Shown one piece after another: positions 643 to 38,405 of a DNA stretch of 38,405 bases; the stretch's first letter is position 1; every line of letters begins with the position of its first letter. Source of the DNA: a virus (taxonomy: Duplodnaviria > Heunggongvirae > Uroviricota > Caudoviricetes). Made by a program: the position numbers and the translations under genes. The notes under the pieces were generated by a model that worked only from the letters and a program-made list of their open reading frames with translations, was not told the origin of the DNA and did no database searches. Where the stretch lies: the IMG/VR virus record IMGVR_UViG_2639762960_000007, one strand, 5' to 3'.

Positions 643-672
643 CCACGCGGCGTTTCATTATTTGAAAAAGAA

Positions 673-1245: not shown

Positions 1246-1311
1246 TAAAAATACTCCCTTTTGAGTGGTTAAAGTACTGAGATAATGTGGGGAGGATTTG
1301 AGAGATAAACG

Positions 1312-1510
1312 TTGGTTTGGGGGAAGGCTCTGCATTGCCTGTTGGTGTACCGGTTCCATGGCCCACCGCCACACCGCCAGCAGGCTGGTTAAAGTGCGAC
1401 GGGCGCGCCTTTACAAAAGAACAATATCCTGTTCTGGCCAGAGTCTACCCGACCCTCCGTCTTCCTGATTTACGCGGTGAGTTTATCCGTGGATGGGACG
1501 ACGGGCGCAA
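1312..1510 (+). repeat. Left arm of a ~199-bp inverted repeat flanking the invertible tail-fibre segment
   Basis: Sequence from ttggtttgggggaaggctctgcattgcc to gggacgacgggcgcaa matches the reverse complement of about 2730..2928; verified by eye over the ends and several internal blocks. Confidence 0.85.
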
Positions 1511-1829
1511 AGTTGATACAGGACGTAAGTTGCTGTCCGCACAAGGGGCAACGCTGTTAAGAACAGCAATGCTGGATTATTATAACCAGGACACTACGGG
1601 AACCTCGGGGATAGTCGGCATGGGATTCAACAATGAAGATTCCATTACAGACCTTCGTGAGGGCAGCTTTAAAATGCCGGACGGGACAACATTCAGCGAT
1701 CCTGTCATGGCAATGTCAGACAATGGTATGCAGGCTACTATTCTGACCTCTATCAGAAGCGGGTATGCGAAGGGTATCACTGTCAGACCCCGTAGCATTG
1801 CACTTAATTACATTGTGAGGGCAGTTTAA
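1317..1829 (+). other. Silent alternative tail-fibre C-terminal cassette (Sv'-like); no ATG, would be fused to the fibre gene after inversion
   Basis: Frame opens at TTG inside the inverted repeat. The first ~63 aa are identical to an internal stretch of the fibre (GEGSALPVGVPVPWPTATPPAGWLKCDGRAF...GWDDGRK), followed by a divergent 106-aa tail ending NYIVRAV (the expressed copy ends NYIVRAA). Confidence 0.7.
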
Positions 1830-2443
1830 TGAGTAACACTGCAGTTCTGGATGAAAACGGTATCGCCACTGTAGCGGGCGATATCACTGTATATCACTAT
1901 GACGAGGAAACCCGGGAATACACCTCATCCTCTGTGGAGTATCTCGCCCTTGGGGTGGGTACTCCGGCACATTCGTGCGCCGATGCACCGCCGGAGGCAA
2001 TTTCGGGTTACGTGGTTTGTCGGACTGCCACGCTGAACGGGTGGGAGCATGTGCCTGATCACCGCGGCGAGACGGTATACAGCACGGAGAACGGTAACCC
2101 CGTTCTGATTACCCAACCGGGTGATTACCCGGCGGACACCACCACAAAACAGCCGGCCACGCCATGGGATACCTGGAACGGTGAGGCGTGGGTAACCGAT
2201 ACTGAACGGCAGCGAGCCGCAGAACTGGAGGTTGCCAGACAGCAACGCCAGCAACGGGTGAAACAGGCGATGGCGTCCGTCGATCTTATCAACCTCAAAC
2301 TGCGGGCAGGTCGCAGTCTGACACCAGAAGAAACGGCAAAACTGAACGCCGTGCTGGATTATATCGACGAGCTGAACGCACTGGATATCAGCACGGCACC
2401 TGAAATCAGCTGGCCGGAAGCGCCACTGGCACTTGCCAGCTGA
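1829..2443 (+). CDS. Tail fibre assembly (chaperone) protein, Tfa / Mu U-like
   Basis: ATG at 1829 overlaps the TAA of the upstream cassette, with GAGG upstream. 204 aa with the typical Tfa C-terminal region (AKLNAVLDYIDELNALDISTAPEISWPEAP). Confidence 0.75.
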   Translation: MSNTAVLDENGIATVAGDITVYHYDEETREYTSSSVEYLALGVGTPAHSCADAPPEAISGYVVCRTATLNGWEHVPDHRGETVYSTENGNPVLITQPGDYPADTTTKQPATPWDTWNGEAWVTDTERQRAAELEVARQQRQQRVKQAMASVDLINLKLRAGRSLTPEETAKLNAVLDYIDELNALDISTAPEISWPEAPLALAS

Positions 2444-8010: not shown

Positions 8011-8894
8011 CACACACTCCTCGTCAGTATTCTGGCGGCCATTGCACTTAATCCCGGAGACATGCGGTTGAATGCTGTGCCGGCGGCGTTAAGCTGCCCG
8101 GAAACGGTATCCAGAGCACCTGCAATATTTCTTTTGTCCACACCACTCAGCGCAGACTGTGCCTGCTGTACATACGTGACTGCTTCGCTGGCTGTTCTGG
8201 CCAGACTGATGGCATCGGGCATGGATTCAGAGAGTGCGTTAAACGCCGGAACACTTTTCCCCAGAGCCCCGGAGATATTACCCAGTCCGCTCATCAGCCC
8301 CGGCACACGGGTCAGTGCGACAACGGGGTTATCCTTCATTTTCTGTGTCACCCGAACGGCGCTGATAGTGGTCTGGAGTACAGACTGCGCCTGTTTCGCA
8401 TAGTTGACGCCGTTGCGGATGAACTGCGCCACCCCTGAAGGTGAAGGTATGGCACCGGAGACCGCCCCGACACCCGGGAGCTTCGTGCGTATTGCCGGTG
8501 GTTGCAGAGTATTTTTCGGGTCACCGGTGTATTCCCGGAGAGACACGGTGGCACTGACAGCCAGCACGTTGCCGGTACTGTCAGTCTGCTCGCTGGTTGC
8601 AGTCACATCGGTAATCACGAACCAGCCGCGATAGTCACCGTTGCCGAAGACCAGCGCCAGTGCCTGATGGGCTTTCATGGCTGTTCGCAGTCTCGCCAGC
8701 TCCACATCGGGTACACAATAATGCTGATGGAAAACCAGAGTTATCTGGATTTCGTCCAGCCTGTCGCCGACGAACTGCAGGCCAGGCTTACCCCCGATGC
8801 GGGCATGCTCCGCATAATCGACGCCGAACGTGGCCTCGAAGCCGTCCCAGTAGGTAATCAGCTCAAACTCAATATCACCCAGTACGGCAAACAT
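8010..8894 (-). CDS. Tail protein, P2 gpU-like
   Basis: 294 aa; ATG at 8892..8894; immediately downstream of the tape measure gene. Confidence 0.65.
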   Translation of the reverse strand: MFAVLGDIEFELITYWDGFEATFGVDYAEHARIGGKPGLQFVGDRLDEIQITLVFHQHYCVPDVELARLRTAMKAHQALALVFGNGDYRGWFVITDVTATSEQTDSTGNVLAVSATVSLREYTGDPKNTLQPPAIRTKLPGVGAVSGAIPSPSGVAQFIRNGVNYAKQAQSVLQTTISAVRVTQKMKDNPVVALTRVPGLMSGLGNISGALGKSVPAFNALSESMPDAISLARTASEAVTYVQQAQSALSGVDKRNIAGALDTVSGQLNAAGTAFNRMSPGLSAMAARILTRSV

Positions 8895-11845
8895 CAGCGG
8901 TACTCCTTACGTTGTTTCTGAGCCAGCAGACGCTCCAGCATTTTTTCCAGCTCATGCAGACTCATATTCAGAGCACCAGTCAGTCCTGCAGGCGCTGTGG
9001 TTTCCCTGCCATTGAGGAAAAACTGAGGATTAAAGCTGACCTGGATACCACCAGACGTTCCACCGCCGGTTGCAGCTGCACCACGGCCTGAATATCCGGC
9101 AGCCATGATTTCAGGCGAGGGGATACGGGGAACATCCGGTGTCATCTCATTTGCCAGACGTTGCCCTGGTAAAATCGATGTCCGGGTGGAGAGCGGGATA
9201 GCGGGCATGGAAGACAAACTATTGATTACGGCTCCGATCGCATTTTTAGCAGACGACATAAACCCGTTGATATCGGGCAACGGCATACTGAAGCGAACAC
9301 CTGAAGTGTTATCCCGTATTTCTGGCCCCTGAATGCTCACGGGCATTCTGGGGAGCAGTTCACTGGCCATTCGCTGCCCGGCCAGAGCTGCAAGCGGAGT
9401 GGTCCGCTGCAGGCCAATGGCGGCCCCCTGCGCGATATTGTCACCAAAGCCCATAAACACGCGGCTCGGCGAATGAATACCCAGCTTTTCACTGAACCAG
9501 CCACTGATGCTGTCACCCATTCCGGTTACACTGGATTTGAGCGACTCCCATTTGTTTTTGATACCGTTAATCAGACCGTCGACAAGATGGCCACCGAAGT
9601 CGGTGAACTTTGCCGGCAGATCAACACCAAGATATTTCAGCGCAGCTGCAAAGGCTTTATAGAGCAGACCTGCCGGCGACCAGTTAATCAGCAGCTTACC
9701 AGTTCCCGCGATACCGCCGTTAAAGGCTTCCTGAATGTCAGCCCAGCACTGTTTAAACCAGCTACTGATGCTGTCACCCATTCCGGTTACACTGGATTTG
9801 AGCGACCCCCATTTGTTTTTGATACCGTTAATCAGACCGTCGATAAGATGGCCACCGAAGTCGGTGAACTTTGCCGGCAGAGCAACGCCGAAATATTTCA
9901 GCGCAGCCGCAAAGGCTTTATAGAGCAGGCCTGCCGGCGACCAGTTAATCAGTAACTTACCAATTCCCACAATGCCGCCGTTAAAGGCTTCCTGAATGTC
10001 TGCCCAGCGCTGTTTAAACCAGCCACTGACTGCCCCCCAGTTGCGGTAGATAAGGTAAGCTGCTGCCGCGACAGCGGTGATAACGAGACCGATGGGATTC
10101 ATCATCAGCGCACGTCCAATCCAGAGAACAGCACGTCCGGCGAGCATAATTCCGCGAACCAGCCCCCCGGAGAGCACGCCACTCAGTGTTCTGGCTCCTC
10201 TGGCGACGGCGCTAAATCCGGTCACCAGCCAGCGGAGCTTACCGCCTTGCCCCAGTGCGAGCGACAGACGAAGCCAGTTGGCCCGAAGTAAAACAGCATT
10301 TTTCCAGACACTTACAAAGGGGGAAATAAGGAGATTCAGCCCCAGTTTGAGACCAACAGTCGCTATCTTAATCGCAAGGAGCGCACTGATGAGCTTAAAA
10401 GCCCCACTGACAAATTGCGGGTGAGTCGCTACCCAGTGTTTTGCCCCCTGAATGAGTGGAAGCAGTTCCTGAGTCAAAGAAATAAAAGATGGAGCTAATT
10501 GATCGCCCAGCGTAATTGCCAGATCGCGACTGCTGACCATAAGTGTTTTAGTGGCTTCAAGGGGAGATTTCAGCCGCTGATCATAAGCACTGGCAAGCAA
10601 ATCGTTATCCGCAGCCCTGAGAGCACCGGCACGGATCTCTCGATATCTGTCCATGTTGGCCAGCATCGGGCGGATAAATGCCATGACCTGCATATCCGCG
10701 AACATATCGCCCAGACCAAAGTTTTTCGCCAGAGCCTGAAGTGCCTCATCTCTTGCCGTATCATTCTTTATTTTCATGGCTGATTTGAAGCCGGCCAGCG
10801 CTTCGGGGCTTTTGGCATTGAGGTAACGTTCTATAACACTCAACATCCCTTCAATCGGAGAGATCCCCGCAGCTTTATAACTCGCAATAGATCCCTGCAA
10901 ATCAATACCCAGATCAGCAAACTGTTTCTGAGTATCGCGGGCAAAAATTTTGGTAAGAAAGTTTTTAAAATTATTGGCTGCTTCGTCGGTGGAACCTGCA
11001 CCGATTTTTGCTATCTGGAGACTGGCCCCGATTTCAGCAACAGCCTCTTTTCCACTGGCAATACCCGCCATCATTGGGGCCAGGGACTGCATCCACTTGA
11101 CCTGATCCGGGATTTCAAATGACCCCTGGTCACCGGCATAAGCCATAATATTCTGAACGGCACCAAAATCTCTGGCCGCACCTTTCAGGGAGTTTTGCCA
11201 GACTGCGGCCACTTTTGCCCAGTCCTGAGCAGACGTGCGTGTTGCCGTTGCCGCGCGGGCAATATCCGGCATCAGAAAACCGATATCTGACACATTATCA
11301 ATATTGTCGCTGATGAGTGAACCCACCGCCTCCTGCAGCTCATCCTGATACTGATTGTATTTAAGCGCCCAGCCTTTTATCTGTCCGGCAAGTGCATCCC
11401 GCGTTTTATTGTCATATTTTGCGGTGATCGACATATCAATCATTTTGTCCTGAAAAGACATGGACTGCTGAACGGCAGGGGAAACCGTATGATAAACAGT
11501 CTGTGCCATGCCATACGCTTCAATCCCCTGACCATACAGCGCCATGCGGTTAGCTTTCAGCGCATCACTGGTAGCGGATGCCGCTGACAGACGGCGCTGC
11601 TGGCGCTCAATTTGCTCCATGGTGCGGCTTACCCGCAGCAGCTCGCTGTTGAGATGCTGCATCCGGGAAGAACCCAGTTGACCATAACGTTCTGTTGCAC
11701 GGGTTAAAGCGTTCTGACGTTCCTGCAGGCGGCGTGAGGTATCGCTCAGGGAATCAAGCGCACGGCGGGTACCGCTCATTGCAGAACGGAATGTGCTGCC
11801 AATCATCCCGCCGATAACAACGCCGACTGAAAACTGTCCCGACAT
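8894..11845 (-). CDS. Tail tape measure protein
   Basis: 983 aa; ATG at 11843..11845; long helical N-terminus, hydrophobic central segments, internal tandem duplication; sits between the chaperone and U-like genes. Confidence 0.85.
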   Translation of the reverse strand: MSGQFSVGVVIGGMIGSTFRSAMSGTRRALDSLSDTSRRLQERQNALTRATERYGQLGSSRMQHLNSELLRVSRTMEQIERQQRRLSAASATSDALKANRMALYGQGIEAYGMAQTVYHTVSPAVQQSMSFQDKMIDMSITAKYDNKTRDALAGQIKGWALKYNQYQDELQEAVGSLISDNIDNVSDIGFLMPDIARAATATRTSAQDWAKVAAVWQNSLKGAARDFGAVQNIMAYAGDQGSFEIPDQVKWMQSLAPMMAGIASGKEAVAEIGASLQIAKIGAGSTDEAANNFKNFLTKIFARDTQKQFADLGIDLQGSIASYKAAGISPIEGMLSVIERYLNAKSPEALAGFKSAMKIKNDTARDEALQALAKNFGLGDMFADMQVMAFIRPMLANMDRYREIRAGALRAADNDLLASAYDQRLKSPLEATKTLMVSSRDLAITLGDQLAPSFISLTQELLPLIQGAKHWVATHPQFVSGAFKLISALLAIKIATVGLKLGLNLLISPFVSVWKNAVLLRANWLRLSLALGQGGKLRWLVTGFSAVARGARTLSGVLSGGLVRGIMLAGRAVLWIGRALMMNPIGLVITAVAAAAYLIYRNWGAVSGWFKQRWADIQEAFNGGIVGIGKLLINWSPAGLLYKAFAAALKYFGVALPAKFTDFGGHLIDGLINGIKNKWGSLKSSVTGMGDSISSWFKQCWADIQEAFNGGIAGTGKLLINWSPAGLLYKAFAAALKYLGVDLPAKFTDFGGHLVDGLINGIKNKWESLKSSVTGMGDSISGWFSEKLGIHSPSRVFMGFGDNIAQGAAIGLQRTTPLAALAGQRMASELLPRMPVSIQGPEIRDNTSGVRFSMPLPDINGFMSSAKNAIGAVINSLSSMPAIPLSTRTSILPGQRLANEMTPDVPRIPSPEIMAAGYSGRGAAATGGGTSGGIQVSFNPQFFLNGRETTAPAGLTGALNMSLHELEKMLERLLAQKQRKEYR
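9495..10016 (-). repeat. Two tandem ~261-bp direct repeats inside the tape measure gene, plus the start of a third
   Basis: actgatgctgtcacccattccggttacactggatttgagcga at 9503 recurs at 9764; the encoded 87-aa units (WFKQRWADIQEAFNGG...GMGDSIS) are nearly identical. Confidence 0.85.
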
Positions 11846-25698: not shown

Positions 25699-26469
25699 AT
25701 GAAAATGCAGACATTACCCATCGTTCCATGGATTGGTGGCAAACGCCGCCTTGCAAAACACATCCTGCCGCTGTTTCCGGCGCATGAATGTTATGTGGAG
25801 CCGTTTTGTGGGGCAGCAGCGCTCTATTTTCTTAAGGTACCCGGCAAGATCGAAGTCATTAATGATATCAACGGTGAGCTGGTGAACCTGTATCGGGTGG
25901 TAAAACATCATCTGGAAGAATTTGTACGCCAGTTCAAATGGGCGCTGGTCAGCCGGCAGATCTACAAATGGCTGCAGATCACCCCGGAAGAAACACTGAC
26001 GGATATCCAGCGTGCAGCACGGTTCTACTACCTTCAGAAGCAGGCGTTTGGGGGCAAGGTGGCGGAGCACAGCTTTGGTACCTCCACCATATCCCCGCCA
26101 CGCTTCAACCTGCTGCGTATTGAAGAAGAACTGTCAGCGGCACACCTGCGGCTTTCCAGAACGGTCATAGAACACATGGACTGGCAACAGTGCATAGAAC
26201 GATATGATCGCCCGCATACGTTGTTCTACTGTGACCCTCCATACTGGGGAACGGAAGGTTATGGTGTGGAGTTCGGACTAGAAAATTATGATCATATGGC
26301 AGATTTAGCACGCAGGATCAAAGGGAAGATGATTATATCGGTGAACGATATCCCGGAAATGCGGCAGGCATTCAACGGTCTAAATATTCAGTCGGTTGAT
26401 ATCAGCTACAACCTCAAGATCACTGGCAAATCCAGTCGCAAGAAGGAACTCATTATCCTCAACTTTTGA
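25699..26469 (+). CDS. N6-adenine DNA methyltransferase, Dam (D12 class)-like, orphan
   Basis: 256 aa; ATG at 25699; motif I-like EPFCGAAAL and catalytic DPPY (FYCDPPYW); no adjacent restriction endonuclease candidate. Confidence 0.85.
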   Translation: MKMQTLPIVPWIGGKRRLAKHILPLFPAHECYVEPFCGAAALYFLKVPGKIEVINDINGELVNLYRVVKHHLEEFVRQFKWALVSRQIYKWLQITPEETLTDIQRAARFYYLQKQAFGGKVAEHSFGTSTISPPRFNLLRIEEELSAAHLRLSRTVIEHMDWQQCIERYDRPHTLFYCDPPYWGTEGYGVEFGLENYDHMADLARRIKGKMIISVNDIPEMRQAFNGLNIQSVDISYNLKITGKSSRKKELIILNF

Positions 26470-27664
26470 CCGAATAGTAAGACTTCATGCAGTGAATCAA
26501 GTACTGCATGAAGTCAAGGGCTGGTTTTGTGTACCAAAAATAAACAGTGATAGCGGTAATAATTCCCATAACTAGAACACCACGTATAATCCAGAACGTA
26601 CGTTTCTGCGTGTCTAGTCGCGCAGAAATACTGCTAAATACACCAGCCACGTCATCTTTAATGAAGGAATATTCCTTATTAATCTGTTTTTCTTTGTATT
26701 CAATTTCTTCGCCTAAGGCCTTTATAGATTGCATCTGGTTCGAAAGTGCCAGCCAGATTAACGTTGCAGCAAAAATGCATCCCAGAAGAATTATTGTGTT
26801 TGTTATCCCTTGGCCTGACCATTTCGTAGCCACTTTGAATTGGGTAGCTACGATAACAGAGGCAACAGGAATGCCAAGTATATGGTTCTGGATATCTGAA
26901 AACGCTTTGTGGATTTTACCCATTTCTTCGACTTTTGCAGCACGCAGTTGATCCATTACTTTGTCATAAGAGAATCCAGAAGAGTAGATACGATACCCTT
27001 TCAGAAACTTTTCATGCAGACGCTGAATATTGTCCAGTAAATAAGCGAATACTAGAGGTGAATCAATTCCATCACTAACTGCTTGAATACTTTCAATCAG
27101 AATATCTAGCTTCTGATCCTTATGGGTATCATCATTGAAACAAGCTATAAGGTTATCAAGATACTCCCTTTGCAAATTTTGTACATTTTCTGCAGCGAAG
27201 TGCGGTAATAGCTTGATAACTTCTTTTTTCAGAAAAACTAACTGACAAGTTGAGTTATCAAAGTAGGCCGCGGCCTCTTTTAGCAGGTTAACGAACTCGA
27301 GAATCTTCCGGTAGTTGCTGATGAAAACGGGGATATCTTCATCATCATTACGAAATTTTGTTTCTAGGATGAAGTAATTAGCTGGCTCAAGGCACTGATG
27401 CTTTGGAGCATTTAGCAATTTTTCATGGGTGGAAAACACAAGTCCCAGTCCACTCCGTGGTGACGTCACACGTAGGATGATCGTGTTACCTGGAGCGATA
27501 GTGCCTGTATCAATAGAAAGACCATATTCACGAGGATCATCAAGCAAAGTATCAACCAGATCACAATCGGACTGATCTAAGAGCAACAGCGAACCGACAC
27601 GAAACCCCTCTTGGAATTCCATACGACGATACAGAGCTGTCAGCATCTCAAATGAAATCGCCAC
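26459..27664 (-). CDS. Protein with ~270-aa soluble N-terminal domain and three C-terminal TM helices; second gene of the repressor-linked cassette (candidate effector)
   Basis: 401-aa ORF starting at GTG 27662..27664, two nt after the upstream gene's TAA, with GAGG upstream; alternative ATG at 27646. Hydrophobic segments IPVASVIVATQF, ITNTIILLGCIFAATLIWLALS and TFWIIRGVLVMGIITAITVYFWY. AT-rich codon usage. Confidence 0.65.
   Translation of the reverse strand: MAISFEMLTALYRRMEFQEGFRVGSLLLLDQSDCDLVDTLLDDPREYGLSIDTGTIAPGNTIILRVTSPRSGLGLVFSTHEKLLNAPKHQCLEPANYFILETKFRNDDEDIPVFISNYRKILEFVNLLKEAAAYFDNSTCQLVFLKKEVIKLLPHFAAENVQNLQREYLDNLIACFNDDTHKDQKLDILIESIQAVSDGIDSPLVFAYLLDNIQRLHEKFLKGYRIYSSGFSYDKVMDQLRAAKVEEMGKIHKAFSDIQNHILGIPVASVIVATQFKVATKWSGQGITNTIILLGCIFAATLIWLALSNQMQSIKALGEEIEYKEKQINKEYSFIKDDVAGVFSSISARLDTQKRTFWIIRGVLVMGIITAITVYFWYTKPALDFMQYLIHCMKSYYSVKS
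26481..26515. other. Perfect 13-bp-stem inverted repeat at the convergent junction of the methyltransferase and cassette genes
   Basis: gacttcatgcagt-gaatcaagt-actgcatgaagtc, 12 nt after the methyltransferase stop and inside the last ~20 codons of the minus-strand membrane-protein ORF. Confidence 0.4.
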
Positions 27665-27666
27665 GA

Positions 27667-28674
27667 TTAAACCTCAGTCATCCACATTTCCCTAAATTCT
27701 TCAGGTACATTACGTAGGGTGATAATATTTGTTTCCGGATCATAATCAATATAGCCTTCAGTTTTCCCTTCCCGGTCAAACTTAAGTTCCCAATATTTAG
27801 ACTTGCCTTTAAAAGATACCAGAGCCCGAATGACTCGACCATCAGGAACGAAGCCATCCGATAACTCCAACTCTTCAGCAGCAAGTTTACCAGATAACTC
27901 CTCGGGAGCCTGGGGCCAAATGGCATTAACAAGGGTTTCAAGACTAAGTGGTTCACCAGCCTTACTTAGTGCATGTAAGTGTTCAAACGCACTCTTAAGA
28001 AATGCATCTTTTTCAGCGCCGTCAAGTCCTTTCTCTGCCGCAAATGCTTTTAAAACGTCACGTAACTTTTCAGACTCTCGTTTGGCGATTAAGACATCAT
28101 TACAGCCTAGGAACTGTTTAAAATAGTTTGAAACATTACCTTGCCCCTTAAGAAAACTGATATAGCGCTCTGCGCCACTTTCCCACGCGGTTAAGTCAAT
28201 GCGCCCAGCCATACGCAGCTTAGCAATATCAAGATAGGTACTATCTTGGATGTTAAAATCATCTGTGACAGTGGACCCAATGGTAGCGCTTACAATAGCT
28301 ATCAACAGGTGTTCATTGTGTCCTATCACGATATTTGCAAAAAGAACATAACCACCAGTAGCCATGTTTTCTCGCTGAGAACGTTCCGTCAGGTGATGCA
28401 TCATTCGGCAGGAACTTTGGTAGAAATCATCAACACCTTCGAGAAAGTCCCCAGCCATTCGTTCCATAGGATAGTTATCCGTATCGCCTTCAAAATAGCC
28501 ATAACCTTTACCTGTGCGTCCTGCATATTTTGCACAAATATCGTTTATAAGGCGCTGAGAGGCTTCAGTAACTAGACCTTCTTCAGGACTCAATCTCTCA
28601 GAAGCGTCTCCATTTTGTTGTTTGTCTAAAATGTGAACTACAACGTGTTTAACTTCAATGGTCTGCTCAGACAT
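27667..28674 (-). CDS. NdpA/YejK (NA37)-like nucleoid-associated-protein homologue; first gene of the repressor-linked cassette (candidate sensor)
   Basis: 335 aa; ATG at 28672..28674 preceded by GGTGGA. It matches the length and several blocks of E. coli YejK as I recall it (GGYVLF, LLIAIVS, YLDIAKLRMAGRIDLTAWESG, RYISFLKGQG, IITLRNVPEEFRE). The family call is from memory, not a search. Confidence 0.55.
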   Translation of the reverse strand: MSEQTIEVKHVVVHILDKQQNGDASERLSPEEGLVTEASQRLINDICAKYAGRTGKGYGYFEGDTDNYPMERMAGDFLEGVDDFYQSSCRMMHHLTERSQRENMATGGYVLFANIVIGHNEHLLIAIVSATIGSTVTDDFNIQDSTYLDIAKLRMAGRIDLTAWESGAERYISFLKGQGNVSNYFKQFLGCNDVLIAKRESEKLRDVLKAFAAEKGLDGAEKDAFLKSAFEHLHALSKAGEPLSLETLVNAIWPQAPEELSGKLAAEELELSDGFVPDGRVIRALVSFKGKSKYWELKFDREGKTEGYIDYDPETNIITLRNVPEEFREMWMTEV

Positions 28675-29770: not shown

Positions 29771-29780
29771 GGAGTAATCA

Positions 29781-30692
29781 ATGGGACGCACCAAATCACC
29801 GGTTAGCACTGAACTGAACGTCGAGGTACCGCTGTCGGATGATCTCAATGTCAGTCTAAACGCCATGACACAGCATCGCATGGAAATCATGCAACAGTTC
29901 GGCGATGGTCTGCCTTATGAGCGCGATCGTGTTGTCCATGAGGCACGCTTTTATATGGCACAGAGCGCTGAGGCCATGCTGGAGGCAGGTAAGCGGCTGA
30001 TAATCCTTAAGGAAAATGAACCACACGGGGAGTTTATAAAGATTCTTGAAAGTGAGTTGGGGCTGGCATACCGGACATCTGTGAGAATGATGCAAGCATC
30101 GACAAAATACTTATCCCCGGCGCTGAAACCAAATGTGCCAACGTTGGCACATTTGGGAAAAGCCAAACTTTTCGAATTAATGACAGAAGACGACGAAGAG
30201 CTTGCCGAACTGGCCGACGGCGGCACAGTTGCCGGCCTGACGCTTGACGACGTTGATCGCATGTCAGTACGCGAACTTCGCCAGGCCCTGCGCGAAGCGC
30301 GCGAAACCAACGCAGCACAACAGCGCGTACTCGCCGATAAAAATGAAAAAATTGATTCTCTCTCTACCAGACTGGAAAAGAAATCCCGTATTCAGCTGCC
30401 TGAGCCTGATGAGGAGGTTAAGAAGCTGCGGGCGGAAGTGACAGCATTAGCGGTTGAGGCGGAATCTGCCATCGCCGTTCGACTGTCCAGCGCTTTTGAG
30501 ACACTGTGCGCATATTGTGCTGAAAACATGATTGATACCCCCAGAGACTTCATGGCAGGCCTGGTCTGTCAACTGGAAAGCACAGCGCGTAGCCTGCGCT
30601 CCACATTTGACCTGCCGGACGAGCCAACAGGCGATGTCGCGCCTTCATGGCTGACTGAGCCGACGCCACAGATTAACGGGCTGGAGGCATAA
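29781..30692 (+). CDS. Hypothetical early protein with coiled-coil central region
   Basis: 303 aa; ATG at 29781 preceded by AAGGAG; no motif I can assign. Confidence 0.55.
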   Translation: MGRTKSPVSTELNVEVPLSDDLNVSLNAMTQHRMEIMQQFGDGLPYERDRVVHEARFYMAQSAEAMLEAGKRLIILKENEPHGEFIKILESELGLAYRTSVRMMQASTKYLSPALKPNVPTLAHLGKAKLFELMTEDDEELAELADGGTVAGLTLDDVDRMSVRELRQALREARETNAAQQRVLADKNEKIDSLSTRLEKKSRIQLPEPDEEVKKLRAEVTALAVEAESAIAVRLSSAFETLCAYCAENMIDTPRDFMAGLVCQLESTARSLRSTFDLPDEPTGDVAPSWLTEPTPQINGLEA

Positions 30693-30695
30693 CCA

Positions 30696-32465
30696 ATGAA
30701 TGCTGCCCTGACTGAACGACTGGTTTATGTCGCCCGCGCGGCACGTGACGCGGGGCATGGTAAACGCGGTGCAATATACGACGCTGCCTGTGCTGAACTT
30801 GGCATGTCCCGCGCCACTCTGCTGCGCAGGCTGAAGGAGGTCTCTGTGACTGATAAACGCAAAAAACGCGCCGATGCCGGGCGCAGCGCCCTGACCCGCG
30901 ACGAAGCCGCGCTGATATCTGCCACACTGCGTGAGGCCACCCGCAAGAACGGTAAGCGTCTCTATTCCATCGCAGATGCAGTGGAAACCCTGCGGGCTAA
31001 CGGCTTTATCTCCGCAGGCAGAACAGATGAAACCACCGGTGAGTTTTTCCCGTTGTCCGAAGATGCCATCAGCCGTGCCCTGCGTAACTATGGCCTGCAC
31101 CCGGAACAACTGGATGCCCCTGCGCCGCATACCGAAGTGGCCAGTCTGCATCCCAATCACGTCTGGCAGATTGATGCCTCGCTCTGCACGCTTTACTACC
31201 TGAGCAATGGACACAAAGGGCTGCAGGTGATGGACAGCGCGAAATTCTACAAGAACAAGCCCGCTAACCTTGCCCGTATCGCCAGTGACCGCGTGTGGAG
31301 TTATGAGATTACCGACCATGCCAGCGGCTGGATTTACGTTGAGTATGTGACGGGTGCGGAATCCGGTGAGAACCTGTGTTCTGTGCTTATCAACGCCATG
31401 CAGGAGCGTGGCGGCGCAGACGTGCTGCACGGCGTGCCAAAAATACTCTATCTCGACCCCGGCTCGGCAAACACCGCGGGTATGACGAAAAACATGTGCC
31501 GCTCACTGGGCATTGACCTGATAGCGCACAAGCCGCATAACGCCCGCGCCACCGGACAGGTGGAAAAGGCGCGGGACATTATCGAACGCAAGCTGGAGCC
31601 GGGTCTGAAGTTCCGGCCGGTTCACAGTCTGGAAGAACTCAACGCGCTGGCCGCGAAATGGCGCAGCCACTTTAACGCCACGGCTGTTCACAGCCGCCAC
31701 GGTAAAACCCGCACGGATATCTGGCTGAAGATTACTGCTGAGCAGCTGAAAAAAGCGCCTTCCGTTGAGGTATGTCGTGAACTGGCTGTGGCGGCACCAG
31801 AACTCCGCAAAGTCACGCCAAAACTTCGTGTCTCGTTCCGGGGCACTGAATTTGACGTATCAACGGTACCGGGCGTACTGGTTGGTGAAAAACTGATGAT
31901 TACCCGTAACCCATGGCGCAGCGATGTGGCACAGGTGGTTCTGACCGGTGAGGACGGCCACGAGACGTTCTTCCTGGTCGAAGAGGTCAGAAAGAACGAG
32001 TTTGGCTTTGCTGAAGGCGCGGCGGTATTTGGCGAAAGTTACAAAGCCCTGCCGGAAACCCCGGCACAGATGGCGGCAAAAGAAACTGAAGCGCTGGTTA
32101 CCGGTACAGACAACGCCGCAGATGCAGCCGCCGCACGCAAGGCGAAGGCGCTGCCGTTCGGCGGGCGGCTTGACCCGTATAAACATATCGACGACACCAC
32201 ACTTCCGGCCTATATGCCGAAGCGTGGTCAGGCCTCTGACGTACGCGGGCCGCGCACTGAACAACGTCCCATGACTCATGTGGAGGCCGCGAAAGCCCTG
32301 CGCGATAAGTTCAGCGCCGACGGCCTTACCTGGACGCCGGAACATTACCGCCAGTTAACGGCACAGTACCCGGACGGCGTACCGGAAGCCGCACTGGATG
32401 AAGTCATGGCCACGCTGACCACACCGGCCAGCAGCAGTGTTATCAGCATTGTTAACGGCAACTGA
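30696..32465 (+). CDS. DDE transposase (Mu A-like function, integrase-core type)
   Basis: 589 aa; ATG at 30696 preceded by GGAGG; N-terminal HTH-like region; candidate catalytic acidic residues in WQIDAS and YLDPGSAN, with a downstream Glu. Confidence 0.8.
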   Translation: MNAALTERLVYVARAARDAGHGKRGAIYDAACAELGMSRATLLRRLKEVSVTDKRKKRADAGRSALTRDEAALISATLREATRKNGKRLYSIADAVETLRANGFISAGRTDETTGEFFPLSEDAISRALRNYGLHPEQLDAPAPHTEVASLHPNHVWQIDASLCTLYYLSNGHKGLQVMDSAKFYKNKPANLARIASDRVWSYEITDHASGWIYVEYVTGAESGENLCSVLINAMQERGGADVLHGVPKILYLDPGSANTAGMTKNMCRSLGIDLIAHKPHNARATGQVEKARDIIERKLEPGLKFRPVHSLEELNALAAKWRSHFNATAVHSRHGKTRTDIWLKITAEQLKKAPSVEVCRELAVAAPELRKVTPKLRVSFRGTEFDVSTVPGVLVGEKLMITRNPWRSDVAQVVLTGEDGHETFFLVEEVRKNEFGFAEGAAVFGESYKALPETPAQMAAKETEALVTGTDNAADAAAARKAKALPFGGRLDPYKHIDDTTLPAYMPKRGQASDVRGPRTEQRPMTHVEAAKALRDKFSADGLTWTPEHYRQLTAQYPDGVPEAALDEVMATLTTPASSSVISIVNGN

Positions 32466-32475
32466 GGAGGGAAAC

Positions 32476-33642
32476 ATGCTGGTACTGAAGCAGCAACTGA
32501 AAGAGGCCCGTATTCCACAGGCGGTGGTGGCGAGAGCTGTCGATGTTTCTGAGGCCACGCTGGCCCAGATTGTGAATCATAACGCGTGGCCCCGCACCAG
32601 CCCCGGAGAAGTGCGCCGGCGTCTTGCGTCCTGGCTGGAAAGTCAGGGGATTGATACAACGAAGAGTTTTGATGCTGTACAGGGCGCGGCCACGCCCCGT
32701 ACAGCGGGTACCACAGATAAAACGAGCCTCAGTGAGGAAGAGAATATGTTACTCAAAAAACAGGTGTTATTTCCAGCAACCAAAAAAGCGTTTGGTCTTT
32801 TCCGTGACCCGTTCGCCGACGAAGCCATGCAGGGTTCTGATGATGTGTTCACCACCCCGGATATTCGCTACGTGCGTGAGGCGTTGTACCAGACAGCCCG
32901 TCATGGTGGGTTTATGGCCGTCATCGGTGAGTCCGGTGCGGGTAAATCCACGCTGCGCCGCGACCTGACTGAACGTATCAACCGCGAGAATGCGCCGGTA
33001 ATTGTTATCGAGCCATACATCATCGCTATGGAAGACAACGATGTGAAAGGGAAAACCCTGAAGGCAGCAGCGATTGCCGAAGCCATTATCAGTACCATCG
33101 CACCACTGGAAAGCATCAGACGCAGTCAGGACGCCCGCTTTCGCCAGTTGCATCGCGTCCTGAAAGACAGCAGCCAGGCGGGGTTCAGCCACGTTCTGGT
33201 GATTGAGGAGGCCCACAGTCTGCCCATTCCGACACTGAAACACCTCAAACGCTTTTTTGAGCTGGAGTCCGGTTTCAAAAAACTGCTGTCCATCGTGCTG
33301 ATTGGCCAGCCGGAACTGGCGACAAAACTGTCTGAACGCAATATGGAAGTCCGTGAAGTCGTTCAGCGCTGTGAGGTGGTCGAACTTCTGCCTCTGGACA
33401 ATAACCTTGAAGAGTTTCTGACGTTCAAACTGCAACGGGCCGGTAAACAACTGACGGACATTATGGACGCCAGCGCAGTGGATGCCATACGTGCCCGCCT
33501 GAGCAATCCGGGAAGTCATCGTAAAAATATGGTCAGCCTGCTGTATCCGCTGGCCGTCAGTAACCTGGTAATAGCCGCCATGAATCTGGCCGCTGAAATC
33601 GGGGTTCCACAGGTCAACGCTGACGTTGTCAAAGGGGTTTAA
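32476..33642 (+). CDS. Transposition ATPase (Mu B-like, AAA+)
   Basis: ATG at 32476 preceded by GAGGAGGG (track ORF starts earlier, inside the transposase gene); Walker A GESGAGKST and Walker B-like HVLVIEEAH. Confidence 0.8.
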   Translation: MLVLKQQLKEARIPQAVVARAVDVSEATLAQIVNHNAWPRTSPGEVRRRLASWLESQGIDTTKSFDAVQGAATPRTAGTTDKTSLSEEENMLLKKQVLFPATKKAFGLFRDPFADEAMQGSDDVFTTPDIRYVREALYQTARHGGFMAVIGESGAGKSTLRRDLTERINRENAPVIVIEPYIIAMEDNDVKGKTLKAAAIAEAIISTIAPLESIRRSQDARFRQLHRVLKDSSQAGFSHVLVIEEAHSLPIPTLKHLKRFFELESGFKKLLSIVLIGQPELATKLSERNMEVREVVQRCEVVELLPLDNNLEEFLTFKLQRAGKQLTDIMDASAVDAIRARLSNPGSHRKNMVSLLYPLAVSNLVIAAMNLAAEIGVPQVNADVVKGV

Positions 33643-33644
33643 TA

Positions 33645-33914
33645 ATGAAATCCACCACAGGTATCAACCAGCAAATCAGCAAAGTGCAGTCAGCCATTAT
33701 GGCGCTTAAGGCGACGAACACGGATGTACAAAGCATCACCATCAGGGGTAACAAACCTGTCATCCGCGTTTCCCGGAGTGCGCATTGCATGCGCATGCTT
33801 GAGCAGGGAAAGGCCTGTTATCTGTATACCGGTCATGACCACAGGGGACATTTCCGTCAGGGCGTTTTCGAACTGCACGGCTGTCGCGTCGTGTGGCCGG
33901 AATCTTTGTGGTAA
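33645..33914 (+). CDS. Hypothetical small early protein
   Basis: 89 aa; ATG at 33645, 2 nt after the B-like stop; Cys/His-containing C-terminus. Confidence 0.45.
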   Translation: MKSTTGINQQISKVQSAIMALKATNTDVQSITIRGNKPVIRVSRSAHCMRMLEQGKACYLYTGHDHRGHFRQGVFELHGCRVVWPESLW

Positions 33915-33941
33915 TCAGCACAACAGGAGGAGTCATAAAAT

Positions 33942-34472
33942 ATGGCAAAAAGTACAAAAGGGGCAAAACGTATCAAAGCCGCAGCAGCACTCTGGGTGCC
34001 GGGGACACGCGAAGAGGTCATTGAGGGAATCAGACTGCTTGGTGACGCGCAACGTGAACTGGTCAGGGCTGAAACAGAAATGAATGACACCATTGGCGAC
34101 ATCACTGCACGTTATGCCCCGCTCACCGAGAGCCTGAAAAAACGCATGGCCGAACTGCAGTCCGGTATCCAGACATGGTGTGAGGCGCACCGTGATGAAC
34201 TGACCGGCAACGGGAAGGTGAAGTTCGCTAACCTCACCACCGGCGAGGTGCAGTGGCGAAACCGTCCGCCGTCAGTCAGCATTCGCGGGGCGGATAATGT
34301 TATTGAATTACTGAGACGTCTGGGGCTTGAGCGCTTTATTCGTGTAAAGGAGGAAATAAATAAAGATGCCATTCTGAATGAAAAAGAGGCTGTGAAAAAT
34401 ATTCCCGGTATTACCATAAAAAGTGATATTGAGGATTTTTCAATAATTCCTTTTGAGCAGGATGTGCAGTAA
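33942..34472 (+). CDS. gam: Host-nuclease inhibitor Gam (Mu Gam family, Ku-like DNA-end binding)
   Basis: 176 aa; ATG at 33942 preceded by GGAGGAG. It resembles Mu Gam along the whole length as I recall it, including the shared C-terminal motif GIEDFSIIPFEQ. Confidence 0.9.
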   Translation: MAKSTKGAKRIKAAAALWVPGTREEVIEGIRLLGDAQRELVRAETEMNDTIGDITARYAPLTESLKKRMAELQSGIQTWCEAHRDELTGNGKVKFANLTTGEVQWRNRPPSVSIRGADNVIELLRRLGLERFIRVKEEINKDAILNEKEAVKNIPGITIKSDIEDFSIIPFEQDVQ

Positions 34473-34569
34473 ACACACCACGTTAATTATTTAATAAAAA
34501 CATTTTCTTTTTTATTCCGGCGTCAGCGCCGCGGGCTTCTGCACGCCGGAAACAGAGGAGAATTAAATT

Positions 34570-34764
34570 ATGATATTTAAATGTATTCAGTGCGAGAGGG
34601 ATATAACAGCCCTGCGTTTTCACAGCGCCATCGCCGTGATGTCCGGTAAGTATCACATACCTGCAGTACGTGTCACCCTGGTCTGCCCGTACTGCAGCCA
34701 GCATTTTTCGGCGGACGTGCCCGTCATAGAATTCTCCCGCCCTGACAGGGAGGACGCGCAATGA
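34570..34764 (+). CDS. Small zinc-ribbon protein, Com-like
   Basis: 64 aa; ATG at 34570 preceded by GAGGAG; two CxxC pairs (FKCIQCERDI and LVCPYCSQHF). Confidence 0.45.
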   Translation: MIFKCIQCERDITALRFHSAIAVMSGKYHIPAVRVTLVCPYCSQHFSADVPVIEFSRPDREDAQ

Positions 34765-35033
34765 TTACCCCACAGGAAGCACGACAGCGCACCCGAACTC
34801 TTGTTGAACACTATGTCAACGAGTGTGAATGCCGCGACCTCACCGATGTGAAGCACGTCCTGACGGCGCTAATCAGCATGGCCACACAGGCCATTGTGGC
34901 GACCAACGGAAAGGAGGCTGCCCTGCAGGTACTGATGAACACACTCACCCACACGGCAGAGCATGAGGTGCCGTACCGGATGGAAACCACTGCAGAAGGC
35001 GGCCTGCACATCACCGTCAGCCGGAAGCACTGA
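34761..35033 (+). CDS. Hypothetical early protein
   Basis: 90 aa; ATGA overlap with the upstream gene. Confidence 0.45.
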   Translation: MITPQEARQRTRTLVEHYVNECECRDLTDVKHVLTALISMATQAIVATNGKEAALQVLMNTLTHTAEHEVPYRMETTAEGGLHITVSRKH

Positions 35034-35042
35034 GGGCGCGGC

Positions 35043-35339
35043 ATGACACGAAACACCGAACTCACCCGCACCGCCCTCTACCGTCTGGCCCTGCAGCGTT
35101 TCGGGCCGGACGCACAGGCCCTGAAACTGACAGAAGAGGCCGCTGAACTGGCGGCCAGTGCTGCCCGCAATCTGAACGGACAGGGCAGCGAAAGTGACCT
35201 CGCGGCAGAGCTGGCAGACGTGGAAATCATGACAGAGCAACTGCGCCTTCAGGGGATGGACCGGCTGATTGACTTCCACAAACAGAAAAAACTGGAACGT
35301 CTGGCTGCACGACTGGGCGTGATTTACACGAACGAGTAA
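35043..35339 (+). CDS. MazG-like nucleotide pyrophosphohydrolase domain protein (tentative)
   Basis: 98 aa; ATG at 35043 preceded by GAGGG; acidic helices LTEEAAELAASAA and AELADVEIMTEQL resemble the EExxE/D motifs of small MazG-like proteins. Confidence 0.4.
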   Translation: MTRNTELTRTALYRLALQRFGPDAQALKLTEEAAELAASAARNLNGQGSESDLAAELADVEIMTEQLRLQGMDRLIDFHKQKKLERLAARLGVIYTNE

Positions 35340-35353
35340 CCGGGAGGCATTCA

Positions 35354-35569
35354 ATGGCTGACATACTCAGGGAAATCACCGCATGGACACTGATTCTTAC
35401 TGGCCTGGCGACATGCCTCAGTGCGGGGGCAGCCCTGGCTGCCCTGCTGATGCACATAACAACACAGTGGTTATGGGAAAAGCTTAAAGCAGCATACAGC
35501 CTGAAAGAGCTGTCCGACGCTGTCCGGGCATGGAAACGGCAGAAAAATACCGGAGATACAGAACAATGA
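35354..35569 (+). CDS. Small membrane protein
   Basis: 71 aa; ATG at 35354 preceded by GGGAGG; hydrophobic segment WTLILTGLATCLSAGAALAALLM. Confidence 0.45.
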   Translation: MADILREITAWTLILTGLATCLSAGAALAALLMHITTQWLWEKLKAAYSLKELSDAVRAWKRQKNTGDTEQ

Positions 35570-36249
35570 CAGACCAGAATAAACACATTGAGAAACTGAA
35601 AAAGTTGCTGGCGCTGGCCGCATCCGGCAACCCGCACGAGGCCGCTCTGGCACTGCGCCGAGCCCGTAAACTGATGGATGTTCACGGCATCACACATTCC
35701 GACATTGCTATGAGTGATATTGATGAAACCATCAGTCATTACTGGCCGACAGGCAGTCTCCGTCCACCGCGCTACATGCTGGGCCTGATGAACATCATCC
35801 GCGAGGCATTTGGTGTTAACTCCATCATTCACCCCGGCACGCATCCGTCTGTGGGGTTCTACGGTAACCGGGAACGAGCGGCACTGGCTGCGTACACCTG
35901 GGAAGTGCTGGTCCGCCAGCTGAAAAAGGCGCGTCAGCAGTATATCAGCGCACAGAACAAAAGAATAAAAAACGCCACCCGTACCAGCCGTGGAGACCAG
36001 TTTGCTGAAGGCTGGGTACTGGCCGTTATCAGTGAAATACAGTCCTTTGCCCTGACCGATGATGAGCGTGAACTGATGCAACAGTGGCTGGAACATAAAT
36101 ACCCGCAGACGCAAACCACCAGGGCGCGTAAACCGGGAAGAAGCCGCAATGGCGACGCCTCGCGCTATGCGGGGTTTCGTGAAGGGCAGAACGTCAGACT
36201 GCACCGCCCGGTCAGTGGGCAGGAACAACAGAAACTGGAGGCCAGATGA
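35566..36249 (+). CDS. DUF2786-like phage protein
   Basis: ATG at 35566 in ATGA overlap with the upstream gene, preceded by GGAGA; N-terminus IEKLKKLLALAASGNPHEAALALRRARKLMDVHGI matches the DUF2786 signature as I recall it. Confidence 0.55.
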   Translation: MTDQNKHIEKLKKLLALAASGNPHEAALALRRARKLMDVHGITHSDIAMSDIDETISHYWPTGSLRPPRYMLGLMNIIREAFGVNSIIHPGTHPSVGFYGNRERAALAAYTWEVLVRQLKKARQQYISAQNKRIKNATRTSRGDQFAEGWVLAVISEIQSFALTDDERELMQQWLEHKYPQTQTTRARKPGRSRNGDASRYAGFREGQNVRLHRPVSGQEQQKLEAR

Positions 36250-36476
36250 TTACGCTATCAGGTAACAGCCGGAAATTAAAAGCCTGCCGAATATCTGCCA
36301 GATACCTTTTTGCCCGCGCCTTTTTTAAGAACGTCAGGCCGGGGATCACAATTGGTGTTATTGCCGGACGCGAACAGGTTGAAAAATACATGTCAGGTGC
36401 ATGGTGGAATAACGACCCTGTCATTGCTGCCCGTAATATTCATATCGAATGGGGAGGTATTCAGAATGACTACTGA
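36246..36476 (+). CDS. Hypothetical small protein
   Basis: 76 aa; ATG at 36246 overlapping the upstream stop. Confidence 0.35.
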   Translation: MITLSGNSRKLKACRISARYLFARAFFKNVRPGITIGVIAGREQVEKYMSGAWWNNDPVIAARNIHIEWGGIQNDY

Positions 36477-36672
36477 AACCATTGTCTGTTTTCTTTTCTG
36501 GTATATGTACGCAGGATCATGCAGCGCAAGACTTCATCGTTCCCTGGGCTATGGCAGGCACTACGACACCGCGCATTACATCCTGTACATGACCGCCGTC
36601 ATGTTGTTCTGGCCAGTCACCCTGCCAGCTGCAACCGACATTGTTGCCGACAGACTGAAAAAAAGGAGATGA
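36466..36672 (+). CDS. Small membrane protein
   Basis: 68 aa from ATG 36466 preceded by GGGGAGG; two hydrophobic segments. Confidence 0.4.
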   Translation: MTTETIVCFLFWYMYAGSCSARLHRSLGYGRHYDTAHYILYMTAVMLFWPVTLPAATDIVADRLKKRR

Positions 36673-36673
36673 T

Positions 36674-37123
36674 ATGCAGAAAAAACGCCTGATACAGCTT
36701 ATCCATATTGCCCGTAATGAACTGGGTATGGATGAAGACACCTACCGCCAGATGTTACAGGGGCTGACCGGTAAAGCCTCAACCAAAGGAATGGATACCA
36801 CACAACTAAACTGCGTGCTGGAATCCATGAAAAAGAAAGGCTTTCGCGTTAAACCAGCCAGAAAAGCCAGCTCCGGTTTACCGCTGGATAACCATCCGCA
36901 GTCCAGGAAAATTCGTGCGCTATGGCTTGAAATGGCTGCTGCCGGCATTGTTCGTGACCGTTCAGAAAATGCATTAGCGCGGTGGATCAAGCGGGAAACG
37001 GGCATCAGCGCCCTGCGCTGGCTCAATACTGAACAGGCAAGCAGTGTTATTGAGAAACTGAAGAAGTGGCAGCACAGAGCTGCGGGAGTAAAACATGAGC
37101 GACCTGAATCAGTTTCGAAGTAA
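36674..37123 (+). CDS. gemA: GemA-like protein (Mu gp16 family)
   Basis: 149 aa; ATG at 36674 preceded by AAGGAGA; N-terminal LIQLIHIARNELGMDEDTYRQMLQGLTGKAS matches the GemA signature; sits immediately upstream of mor. Confidence 0.75.
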   Translation: MQKKRLIQLIHIARNELGMDEDTYRQMLQGLTGKASTKGMDTTQLNCVLESMKKKGFRVKPARKASSGLPLDNHPQSRKIRALWLEMAAAGIVRDRSENALARWIKRETGISALRWLNTEQASSVIEKLKKWQHRAAGVKHERPESVSK

Positions 37124-37493
37124 AGGGCCGGAACTCCTGGTGGAGCTGGCACAGCATACCTCTGAGACCGTTCGCGAGATTATTGATATTGAGCCCGCAA
37201 TTGCCGACCAGATTGGTCAGGCCGTCGCGAACCGAATGATGCAGGTCTGGGGCGGGCAAAACGTTTATTTCCCGATGGGCATGGTATGGAAGGTCAGTCA
37301 GCGCGACCGGGAAATCTTCAGGGAGTTTAACGGACGCAACCACCACGAACTGGCCCGCAAGTTTGGTGTTTCGCTTCAGTGGGTCTACAGCGTGGTTAAG
37401 CGGGTCAGAAAAGAAGAACTGGATCGGATGCAGGGCAGGTTGTTTGATGAAGATCTGCCAGAGGAGACGAAAGACGTTAACAAATCCAGATAA
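37095..37493 (+). CDS. mor: Mor-family transcription activator (middle operon regulator)
   Basis: 132 aa; ATG at 37095 preceded by GGGAG; C-terminal HTH ELARKFGVSLQWVYSVVKR resembles Mor/C family; overlaps the gemA 3' end. Confidence 0.8.
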   Translation: MSDLNQFRSKGPELLVELAQHTSETVREIIDIEPAIADQIGQAVANRMMQVWGGQNVYFPMGMVWKVSQRDREIFREFNGRNHHELARKFGVSLQWVYSVVKRVRKEELDRMQGRLFDEDLPEETKDVNKSR

Positions 37494-37536
37494 TTCCTGC
37501 TTGTTAAAGTCCTTTCAAAAATCTCCTTATTGTATA

Positions 37537-37569
37537 AAAGCACGGTAGACCCCTTACCGTGCTTTTTTT
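37537..37569 (+). terminator. Rho-independent terminator after mor
   Basis: aaagcacggta-gacccct-taccgtgcttt followed by a T-run, 44 nt after the mor stop. Confidence 0.75.
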
Positions 37570-37607
37570 ATGCTCTCTCTTTAGTATTCAGGATGCAGGG
37601 AGAAAAT

Positions 37608-38240
37608 ATGTTTGACGTTTCGTTGTTAAATCTGCCATGGGCAACACTGGTGACCCTGACCAGTGGCTATATTGGGTATTTTATTGCGAATGTGGGACTG
37701 AAGGATCACCACAAGCCCATTGAGGTGACTTTTTCTTCGCTGATTTTTGGCCTGACAGCAATGATGGCTTACCAGGCTGTTATGTGGGCAGGTCTGAATG
37801 CCTGGCTGGCAACACCACCAGCACTTCTGTGTGCCGTTACATGCGGTGCGTGGTGGCGCAGGTACGGTCGCAAATGGATGTACAGATTACTGTGGAATAA
37901 TGATGTTTCATGGTCTGACGATACCAGCTCAGCATGGCAGGCAATGTTTGATCAAACAGGCTTCAGCGTTACCGAGGTCAGAGTGATTCTTCGCGATGGT
38001 TCCGGTATGATGTCACGGCTGCCAGGGAACTTTGAAGAGTGGCCTAACGGTCCGTTTACCCTGGGGAATAAAGGCGATATGGTTCTTTACGTCACGCACA
38101 GCAGCCCTTCAGGCAGTAACGAATGGGAAGAGTATAAAGGCGTGGTTGATAAGTACTGGGGAGCTCTGGCAACCTATATTCCAGCAGATCAGATTGCCAG
38201 AGTGGAGATCAGGCGCGTTCGTGCAACGAACGATGAATGA
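37608..38240 (+). CDS. Membrane protein (three N-terminal TM helices plus ~110-aa soluble C-terminal domain), function unknown
   Basis: ATG at 37608 preceded by AGGGAG gives 210 aa (track ORF starts upstream inside the terminator); hydrophobic segments WATLVTLTSGYIGYFIANV, VTFSSLIFGLTAMMAYQAVMWAGL and ALLCAVTCGAWW. Confidence 0.55.
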   Translation: MFDVSLLNLPWATLVTLTSGYIGYFIANVGLKDHHKPIEVTFSSLIFGLTAMMAYQAVMWAGLNAWLATPPALLCAVTCGAWWRRYGRKWMYRLLWNNDVSWSDDTSSAWQAMFDQTGFSVTEVRVILRDGSGMMSRLPGNFEEWPNGPFTLGNKGDMVLYVTHSSPSGSNEWEEYKGVVDKYWGALATYIPADQIARVEIRRVRATNDE

Positions 38241-38405
38241 TGTTTATTTTTTCCCTGGGGCAGGGGCTGCCGGCATAGTGGTTTTATTGGCAGAGGAAGA
38301 CGATTCTCCTTTTCTACCGGAATCGCGCTCGAACGTCACGATGTGCTTGCTTTTGGGCTTTTCTGAGTAATCCAGGCTATCATGCTTATTGTTTTGAGTA
38401 GTCAT

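Follow-up and report, generated by a model that had tools for sequence, protein, structure and literature searches.

The right end of a 38,405-nt stretch of E. coli prophage DNA (hereafter the window) carries two converging genes directly after mor, one coding for a 210-aa inner-membrane protein and the other for a 53-aa partner protein. The features of this region, some of them given in extended coordinates that run past the end of the window, are as follows.

37095..37493, plus strand: mor (Pfam Mor PF08765, E 1.1e-43), the last gene of the early operon, outside the cassette
37454..38405, both strands: the part of an optional cassette of ~1.1 kb that lies in the window; the cassette runs on to ~38561 in extended coordinates
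37536..37572, both strands: two-way intrinsic terminator (stem 37536-37548 / 37554-37566, loop ACCCC, then a T-run)
37546..37574, plus strand: predicted weak sigma-70 promoter (-35 TAGACC at 37546-37551, 17-nt spacer, -10 TATGCT at 37569-37574)
37598-37602, plus strand: Shine-Dalgarno GGGAG, 5 nt before the ATG, read from the sequence
37608..38240, plus strand: gene of the 210-aa inner-membrane protein (phrog_12870 match; remote DUF6338 relative)
38405..38244, minus strand: gene of the 53-aa partner protein (phrog_15726, E 9.9e-42; annotated WP_001571575.1)
38478..38449 in extended coordinates (L001 10050-10079), minus strand: near-consensus candidate sigma-70 promoter of the small gene (TTGAAA-18-TAGAAT), outside the window

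Position of the cassette in a transposable prophage

The window ORF map showed the late genes on the minus strand, from 1 to about 25500, and the early operon on the plus strand, from about 29780 to 37493, the latter coding for a DDE transposase, a B-like AAA protein, Gam, GemA (PF06252) and Mor (PF08765). The gemA (36674-37123) and mor (37095-37493) genes overlap in different frames over 29 nt (37095-37123). The closest isolated phage was PhiKM, classed as Bcepmuvirus, and by its gene order the prophage is a transposable element of the BcepMu type with a divergent layout that is not that of Mu. The window DNA was present as a chromosomal prophage in many E. coli strains, with right flanks that varied by genome (rstB in two, gspL, and an alkaline-phosphatase family gene). 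Such differing flanks are a mark of random transposition, which indicated an active Mu-like phage. Alignment of four insertion-site right flanks showed that the phage actually ends 196 bp past the window, at ~38601 in extended coordinates, where the right-end sequence reads …ATTTATCTCATGTCTGATCA; the window itself stops at the start codon of its last annotated gene (38405), and the prophage continues over those 196 bp (L001 10007-10202). The terminus, …CGTTATTTATCTCACGGATCCCCCTTCATTTATCTCATGTCTGATCA, contains two direct ATTTATCTCA repeats and a terminal CA, the repeats being likely transposase-binding sites.

Because the right end was mapped beside mor, mor is the last early gene there, in a layout unlike that of Mu. 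The first-pass annotation had compared the position of the membrane-protein gene with that of the middle promoter and late activator C of Mu. The cassette does directly follow mor, as the Mu middle operon (Pm, late activator C) does, but the late genes lie on the other strand, unlike in Mu, and most relatives end right after mor. No second protein of the Mor/C family was found in the window, which has Mor alone. Together with the BcepMu-type layout, this result led us to abandon the comparison.

Other parts of the window carry additional genes.

1-642, minus strand: serine recombinase (the M-17 prophage equivalent is annotated 'recombinase family protein')
25699-26469, plus strand: DNA adenine methylase (name from the RefSeq annotation of the M-17 prophage)
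26459-28674, minus strand: 401-aa hypothetical protein and 335-aa 'nucleoid-associated protein' (names from the M-17 prophage RefSeq annotation)

The segment at 25699-28674 is likely to be a second accessory block, flanked by the late operon and the repressor. At the left end (window 1-2443), the serine recombinase adjoins oppositely oriented tail-fibre and tail-fibre-assembly ORFs, an arrangement that suggests a Gin-type invertible host-range segment. Positions 37400-38405 were 100% identical to the M-17 prophage; the tape-measure gene measured 3213 bp in that prophage (L076 10176-13388) versus 2952 bp here (8894-11845), and thus the window is not identical to the M-17 prophage. Rfam searches over the cassette region and the prophage end returned chance-level matches only.

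Two converging genes and their transcription signals

The mechanical ORF covering the membrane-protein gene (37530..38240) opens at a TTG, and the real start is the ATG at 37608, with which the RefSeq start call agrees; all homologues begin M-F/I/L-D. The AlphaFold2 model of the product (mean pLDDT 84.6) contained helices at residues 11-28, 37-60 and 65-97 followed by a beta domain at 119-205, bearing out the three transmembrane (TM) helices plus soluble domain attributed to this protein in the first-pass annotation. By the positive-inside rule, which would put the KDHHK loop and the RRYGRK segment inside, the predicted topology has the N-terminus outside and the C-terminal domain in the cytoplasm. 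In the model, the beta domain resembles an Sm/LSm-like beta-barrel carried on the three TM helices, with scores that were modest for a small and common fold. Unlike the Sm/LSm (Hfq-like) proteins, however, the cassette protein is anchored in the membrane by its three TM helices and has no sequence similarity to them; a sequence search of the PDB with the membrane protein gave nothing below E 0.5 and no similarity to Sm/LSm or other solved structures. The homologue alignment revealed invariant residues in TM1 (LPW, GY and Y), in the first cytoplasmic loop (H35) and in the barrel (S101, D104, G148, G153, D157, Y161, T163 and R202). The protein has 72 close homologues, and the family as a whole comprises 521 clusters at 50% identity, nearly all of them 200-215 aa long.

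Neither the membrane protein nor its small partner has a family in Pfam or NCBIfam, or in PADLOC-DB 2.0 at E up to 1, and both fell into PHROGs families of 'unknown function' only. Neither cassette protein belongs to a known defence or exclusion family as represented in PADLOC-DB 2.0 and the Pfam Sie/Imm families. The membrane protein matched no known holin family, its TM part giving weak Foldseek matches to LydA-type holins in BFVD (E 0.03-1), and the Pfam, NCBIfam and PDB sequence searches found no transporter or enzyme signature. Weak matches to DUF6338 (PF19865) came from 19 of 34 family members, the best at E 8.5e-6; the window protein itself gave no match to DUF6338 at E up to 0.1, below the Pfam gathering threshold. 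The two groups are alike in being membrane proteins of similar size, and since DUF6338 is an uncharacterised family, the link adds no mechanism. A literature search on the cassette proteins and DUF6338 found nothing relevant.

The first-pass annotation had included neither the conserved partner gene, which converges on the membrane-protein gene with the two stop codons 3 nt apart, nor the 196 bp of prophage that lie beyond the window. An ORF of 33-58 aa with matching position and strand was present in nearly all loci with room for one, and the partner ORF was called independently by other gene callers. The exceptions (L038, L064 and L065) are degraded prophage ends or symbiont copies; at L043, the membrane-protein gene is intact and no partner was detectable. 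The partner ORFs are hydrophilic and contain no hydrophobic segment, and the 53-aa protein is probably disordered. Its tail reads …MPAAPAPGKK, and most partner ORFs likewise have a proline-rich tail, usually with a basic end (PAAPAPGKK, PPLPLKKK, PPPSPKKK, PPPPKK, PPMPKKK), while a few variants end in acidic residues. Differences among the enterobacterial partners were about twice as frequent at the third codon position as at positions 1 and 2, an excess indicating that the partner is a translated gene. Alphaproteobacterial partners (L008, L047, L050, L052, L067, L070 and L074) carry two or three [N/S]-[Y/F/H]-x-P-x-T repeats before the proline-rich tail, as in KSYTPRT…GNYTPTT. Clade-specific HMMs failed to cross-detect, the enterobacterial model missing the alphaproteobacterial small proteins and vice versa, and homology of the small proteins across clades was therefore rejected as unproven. 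Across clades, the partners share position, size and composition only.

The strong terminator that had been proposed after mor was confirmed by folding. The terminator scan found a 13-pair stem at 37536-37566 followed by TTTATGCTCT with seven T's, that is, at 37536-37572, a stable G+C-containing hairpin directly before a T-run, as is characteristic of intrinsic terminators. The plus-strand fold of 37530-37576 reached -19.1 kcal/mol (z -6.72; none of 200 shuffles was as stable). The fold of the reverse strand (-16.7 kcal/mol, z -6.08) is followed by UUUUAU, indicating that the terminator can work both ways. A hairpin and T-run occurred at the equivalent site, 30-60 nt before the start codon, in the compared loci where the gene directly follows mor (clearly in about nine, weakly in L040/L065), with stem sequences that differ between loci (GCACGGTA, GGGCAGA, GCGCAA and CACAGTGG). 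The element is predicted to insulate the early operon and the cassette from each other.

A candidate promoter for the membrane-protein gene is nested in this terminator, with its -35 element in the hairpin top and loop and its -10 element just after the T-run. It has 8 of 12 consensus matches and scored 9.4 with a weight matrix built on consensus frequencies, a value that 3.5% of random 110-nt segments reach. In 9 of 11 distinct loci, whose stems differ, a site of the same nested geometry scored highest (TGGATA-17-TATTCT in one of them). A stricter promoter scan of the window did not call the nested site. We infer that the membrane-protein gene has a weak promoter of its own within the terminator. 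The earlier proposal that the gene is expressed on its own is thus favoured by the predicted promoter and by its recurring geometry, and not by the stricter scan; "independently expressed" is an interpretation rather than an observation. An 8-mer, CTTTCAAA, was judged compatible with chance.

The candidate promoter of the small gene is considerably closer to consensus, with 10 of 12 matches at a distance of 43 nt from the ATG and a weight-matrix score of 14.0, which 0.05% of random segments reach. Nine enterobacterial locus types retain it at 37-43 nt from the ATG, unchanged or with a single base altered. Upstream of it lies a terminator-like hairpin facing the host DNA (L001 10117-10135). A 10-bp inverted repeat (AATCATCCTT … AAGGATGATT), read from the sequences, flanks the promoter on both sides and spans the ribosome-binding site; other loci show base changes that match between its two arms. 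This repeat may insulate the small gene against read-through from the insertion site, and it resembles the fold-back that protects the IS10 transposase against outside transcripts.

A terminator between the converging genes was unsupported (z -0.4 on the plus strand; z -2.1 on the minus strand, where no T-run follows), and the two transcripts must therefore overlap. The transcript of the small gene probably runs antisense through the membrane-protein gene and ends at the two-way terminator (37566-37536). The signals point to autonomous sigma-70 expression of both genes with overlapping transcripts; given their own predicted promoters, both could be expressed in the lysogen whatever the insertion site. 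In the fetched Mu-like loci, the membrane-protein gene is co-oriented with the early operon. At L038, L039 and L041, an upstream ORF abuts the gene with no terminator in between, and thus early-operon read-through may be the main route of expression there. L044/L058 likewise have an upstream ORF and no obvious terminator.

Presence, absence and spread of the cassette

The gemA-mor region of this phage was found in 642 of 5426 complete E. coli genomes and the membrane-protein gene in 132, so that about 20% of the E. coli prophages carrying gemA-mor have the gene and about 80% are missing it. In most genomes, as well as in PhiKM and KP12, the isolated phages nearest to this one, homology ends at 37453, inside the 3' end of mor, and most relatives have nothing after mor. 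The cassette-less prophage EcPF18 ends ~160 bp after mor; it matches the window over 37095-37453 (97% identity) and, beyond that, solely over the final ~41 bp of the right end. Since it shares just these flanks, the cassette corresponds to an insertion or deletion of ~1.1 kb. Its absence from PhiKM, KP12 and EcPF18 agrees with the first-pass view of the gene as accessory rather than core. About 2% of complete E. coli genomes carry the cassette, including ABU 83972, ST131 and probiotic M-17 isolates.

Between mor and the right end lies a cargo hotspot, which also takes up other genes, with or without the cassette. Examples are an 80-aa ORF ending PPPPPPKC in SCU-105 (L078 2164-2406), an 80-85 aa ORF at L041 4743-5000, and a 110-aa ORF in KP12 (L003 4826-5155). 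The 80-85 aa slot ORF is, judging from its motifs, presumably DUF551-like.

Among enterobacteria, the gene is found at the prophage end behind gemA-mor, including loci with a Mor of just 32-39% identity, and the membrane proteins are 57-72% identical; relatives located after Mor occur in Klebsiella, Serratia, Salmonella and Proteus. Distant members (37-46% identity) occupy other genomic contexts. A 42%-identical relative lies between Phage_connect_1 and Phage_HCP (head-tail connector / head closure) in an HK97-like module. The other contexts are a position following terminase, portal and Mu-F-like genes, the interval separating tape-measure from tail-tip genes, sites immediately downstream of an Ogr/Delta activator and of serine recombinases (resolvases), a site downstream of a D12 methylase, a place beside DUF4411/Peptidase_M78 on a sphingomonad chromosome, and the end of a Synechococcus phage genome. 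The alternative set against the accessory view from the start, that of a conserved core component with a morphogenetic role in related phages, was ruled out by this scatter of an optional gene over unrelated phage modules.

HK97 gp15 and lambda bor and lom are examples of morons. A moron is described as an independent transcription unit added between phage genes (PMC3594210). Like morons, the cassette is polymorphic in presence and absence among near-identical phages (132 versus 642 genomes, and EcPF18), has reached unrelated phages (HK97-like, lambda/P2-like and Mu-like ones) and tail modules, sitting at junctions between modules and at the ends of genomes, and has an upstream terminator and predicted promoters of its own. 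Unlike morons, it consists of two converging genes instead of one, a terminator downstream of the membrane-protein gene was looked for without success, and the promoter of that gene, weak and predicted, is nested in the clear upstream terminator. Taken together, the comparison makes it very probable that the two genes form a horizontally mobile, accessory cassette of the moron type, with mor on one side and the last ~40 bp of the right end on the other. The cassette is an uncharacterised phage moron whose architecture is unusual and well conserved.

Accessory genes of prophages are one of the main sources of new functions in anti-phage defence and host modification, and the relatives of this cassette fall into more than 500 protein clusters. 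Its architecture offers three testable design features: a promoter nested in a terminator, a tightly converging partner, and insulation against outside transcripts at the terminus of an element that transposes at random.

Possible functions of the cassette

Converging transcripts that overlap at their 3' ends are known from prophage type I toxin-antitoxin pairs such as txpA/RatA and bsrG/SR4. The cassette resembles these pairs in joining a prophage-borne membrane protein to a converging, strongly promoted and overlapping transcript, as predicted here. It differs from them in that the membrane protein has 210 aa and a folded cytoplasmic domain, not the form of a peptide under 60 aa, and in that the opposing transcript encodes a conserved protein. 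The gene arrangement alone, a tight converging pair with one strong and one weak promoter, is suggestive of a toxin-antitoxin reading. By this analogy, we tentatively propose that the cassette is a protection or addiction module of toxin/antitoxin-like type expressed in the lysogen. The membrane protein would be a membrane-acting effector with the topology of a class I holin, perhaps assembling into rings via its LSm-like domain. An abundant small protein would hold it in check, possibly through docking of its PxxPxK-type tail onto the barrel, with antisense transcription perhaps contributing to the restraint. The small protein would run down, and the effector be set free, once another phage infected the cell or the prophage was lost. 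As the best overall explanation, the accessory cassette and this mechanism together, we give it a probability of roughly 45%.

The same reading can be extended to a widespread and previously undescribed two-component module of abortive infection or addiction that Mu-like, HK97-like and other proteobacterial phages would carry as a moron and in which an LSm-like membrane protein, possibly a ring-forming pore, is restrained by a proline-rich peptide together with antisense transcription and fires on infection or prophage loss. In this full form, we consider the proposal doubtful. If a defence or addiction module is indeed present, it would represent a new type of effector, an LSm-like barrel on three membrane helices; if not, the cassette remains an ordinary moron.

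P22 SieA, T4 Imm and HK97 gp15 block the entry of phage DNA at the inner membrane, and classical superinfection exclusion of this kind, in which the membrane protein alone would stop incoming DNA and the small gene would be a regulator or unrelated, is the first alternative to the toxin/antitoxin-like module. An inner-membrane protein encoded in an optional moron-type unit at typical moron sites (the prophage end and the head-tail joint) is what such a function would predict, and P22 SieA is described as an inner-membrane exclusion protein expressed from the prophage (PMC10883804). We nevertheless regard exclusion, the function that the first-pass annotation had suggested along with immunity, as unlikely, because the protein has no sequence match to known exclusion families and because exclusion leaves unexplained both the tightly linked, strongly promoted converging partner and the conserved cytoplasmic domain of 110 residues with its invariant S101, D104, D157, Y161, T163 and R202.

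Orientation after mor on the same strand in the fetched Mu-like loci, and the abutting upstream ORFs without a terminator at L038, L039 and L041, would also fit a helper of the lytic cycle, expressed by early-promoter read-through or from a Mor-dependent start and acting on the membrane in replication or in lysis timing, for example, as a holin/antiholin-like modulator. The model and the charge distribution fit the topology of a class I holin (three TM helices, N-terminus out, C-terminus in), and the structural matches to LydA-type holins are weak. Unlike a holin, however, the cassette protein has a folded cytoplasmic domain of 110 aa, and the gene does not lie by an endolysin gene in a lysis cassette: the phage has its own lysis genes (a putative holin and an SLT transglycosylase) at ~25484-24358 on the minus strand, at the start of the late operon. 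The absence of the gene from about 80% of such E. coli prophages and from PhiKM and KP12 indicates that it is dispensable, a strong terminator precedes it here, relatives occur also outside phages, and the predicted nested promoter is kept in loci where Mor is just 32-39% identical. A lytic role is thus improbable as compared with the toxin/antitoxin-like module.

An equally improbable alternative is a host-fitness or lysogenic-conversion factor acting outside phage-phage conflict, for example in envelope stress tolerance, transport or signalling, which would suit a moron-type unit with sigma-70 signals that is common in human, animal and food isolates of E. coli and in insect symbionts, but which is countered by the lack of a transporter or enzyme signature in our searches, by a converging pair with overlapping transcripts that is atypical of a simple fitness gene, and by carriers that are almost all phages and mobile elements, with the gene in many unrelated modules.
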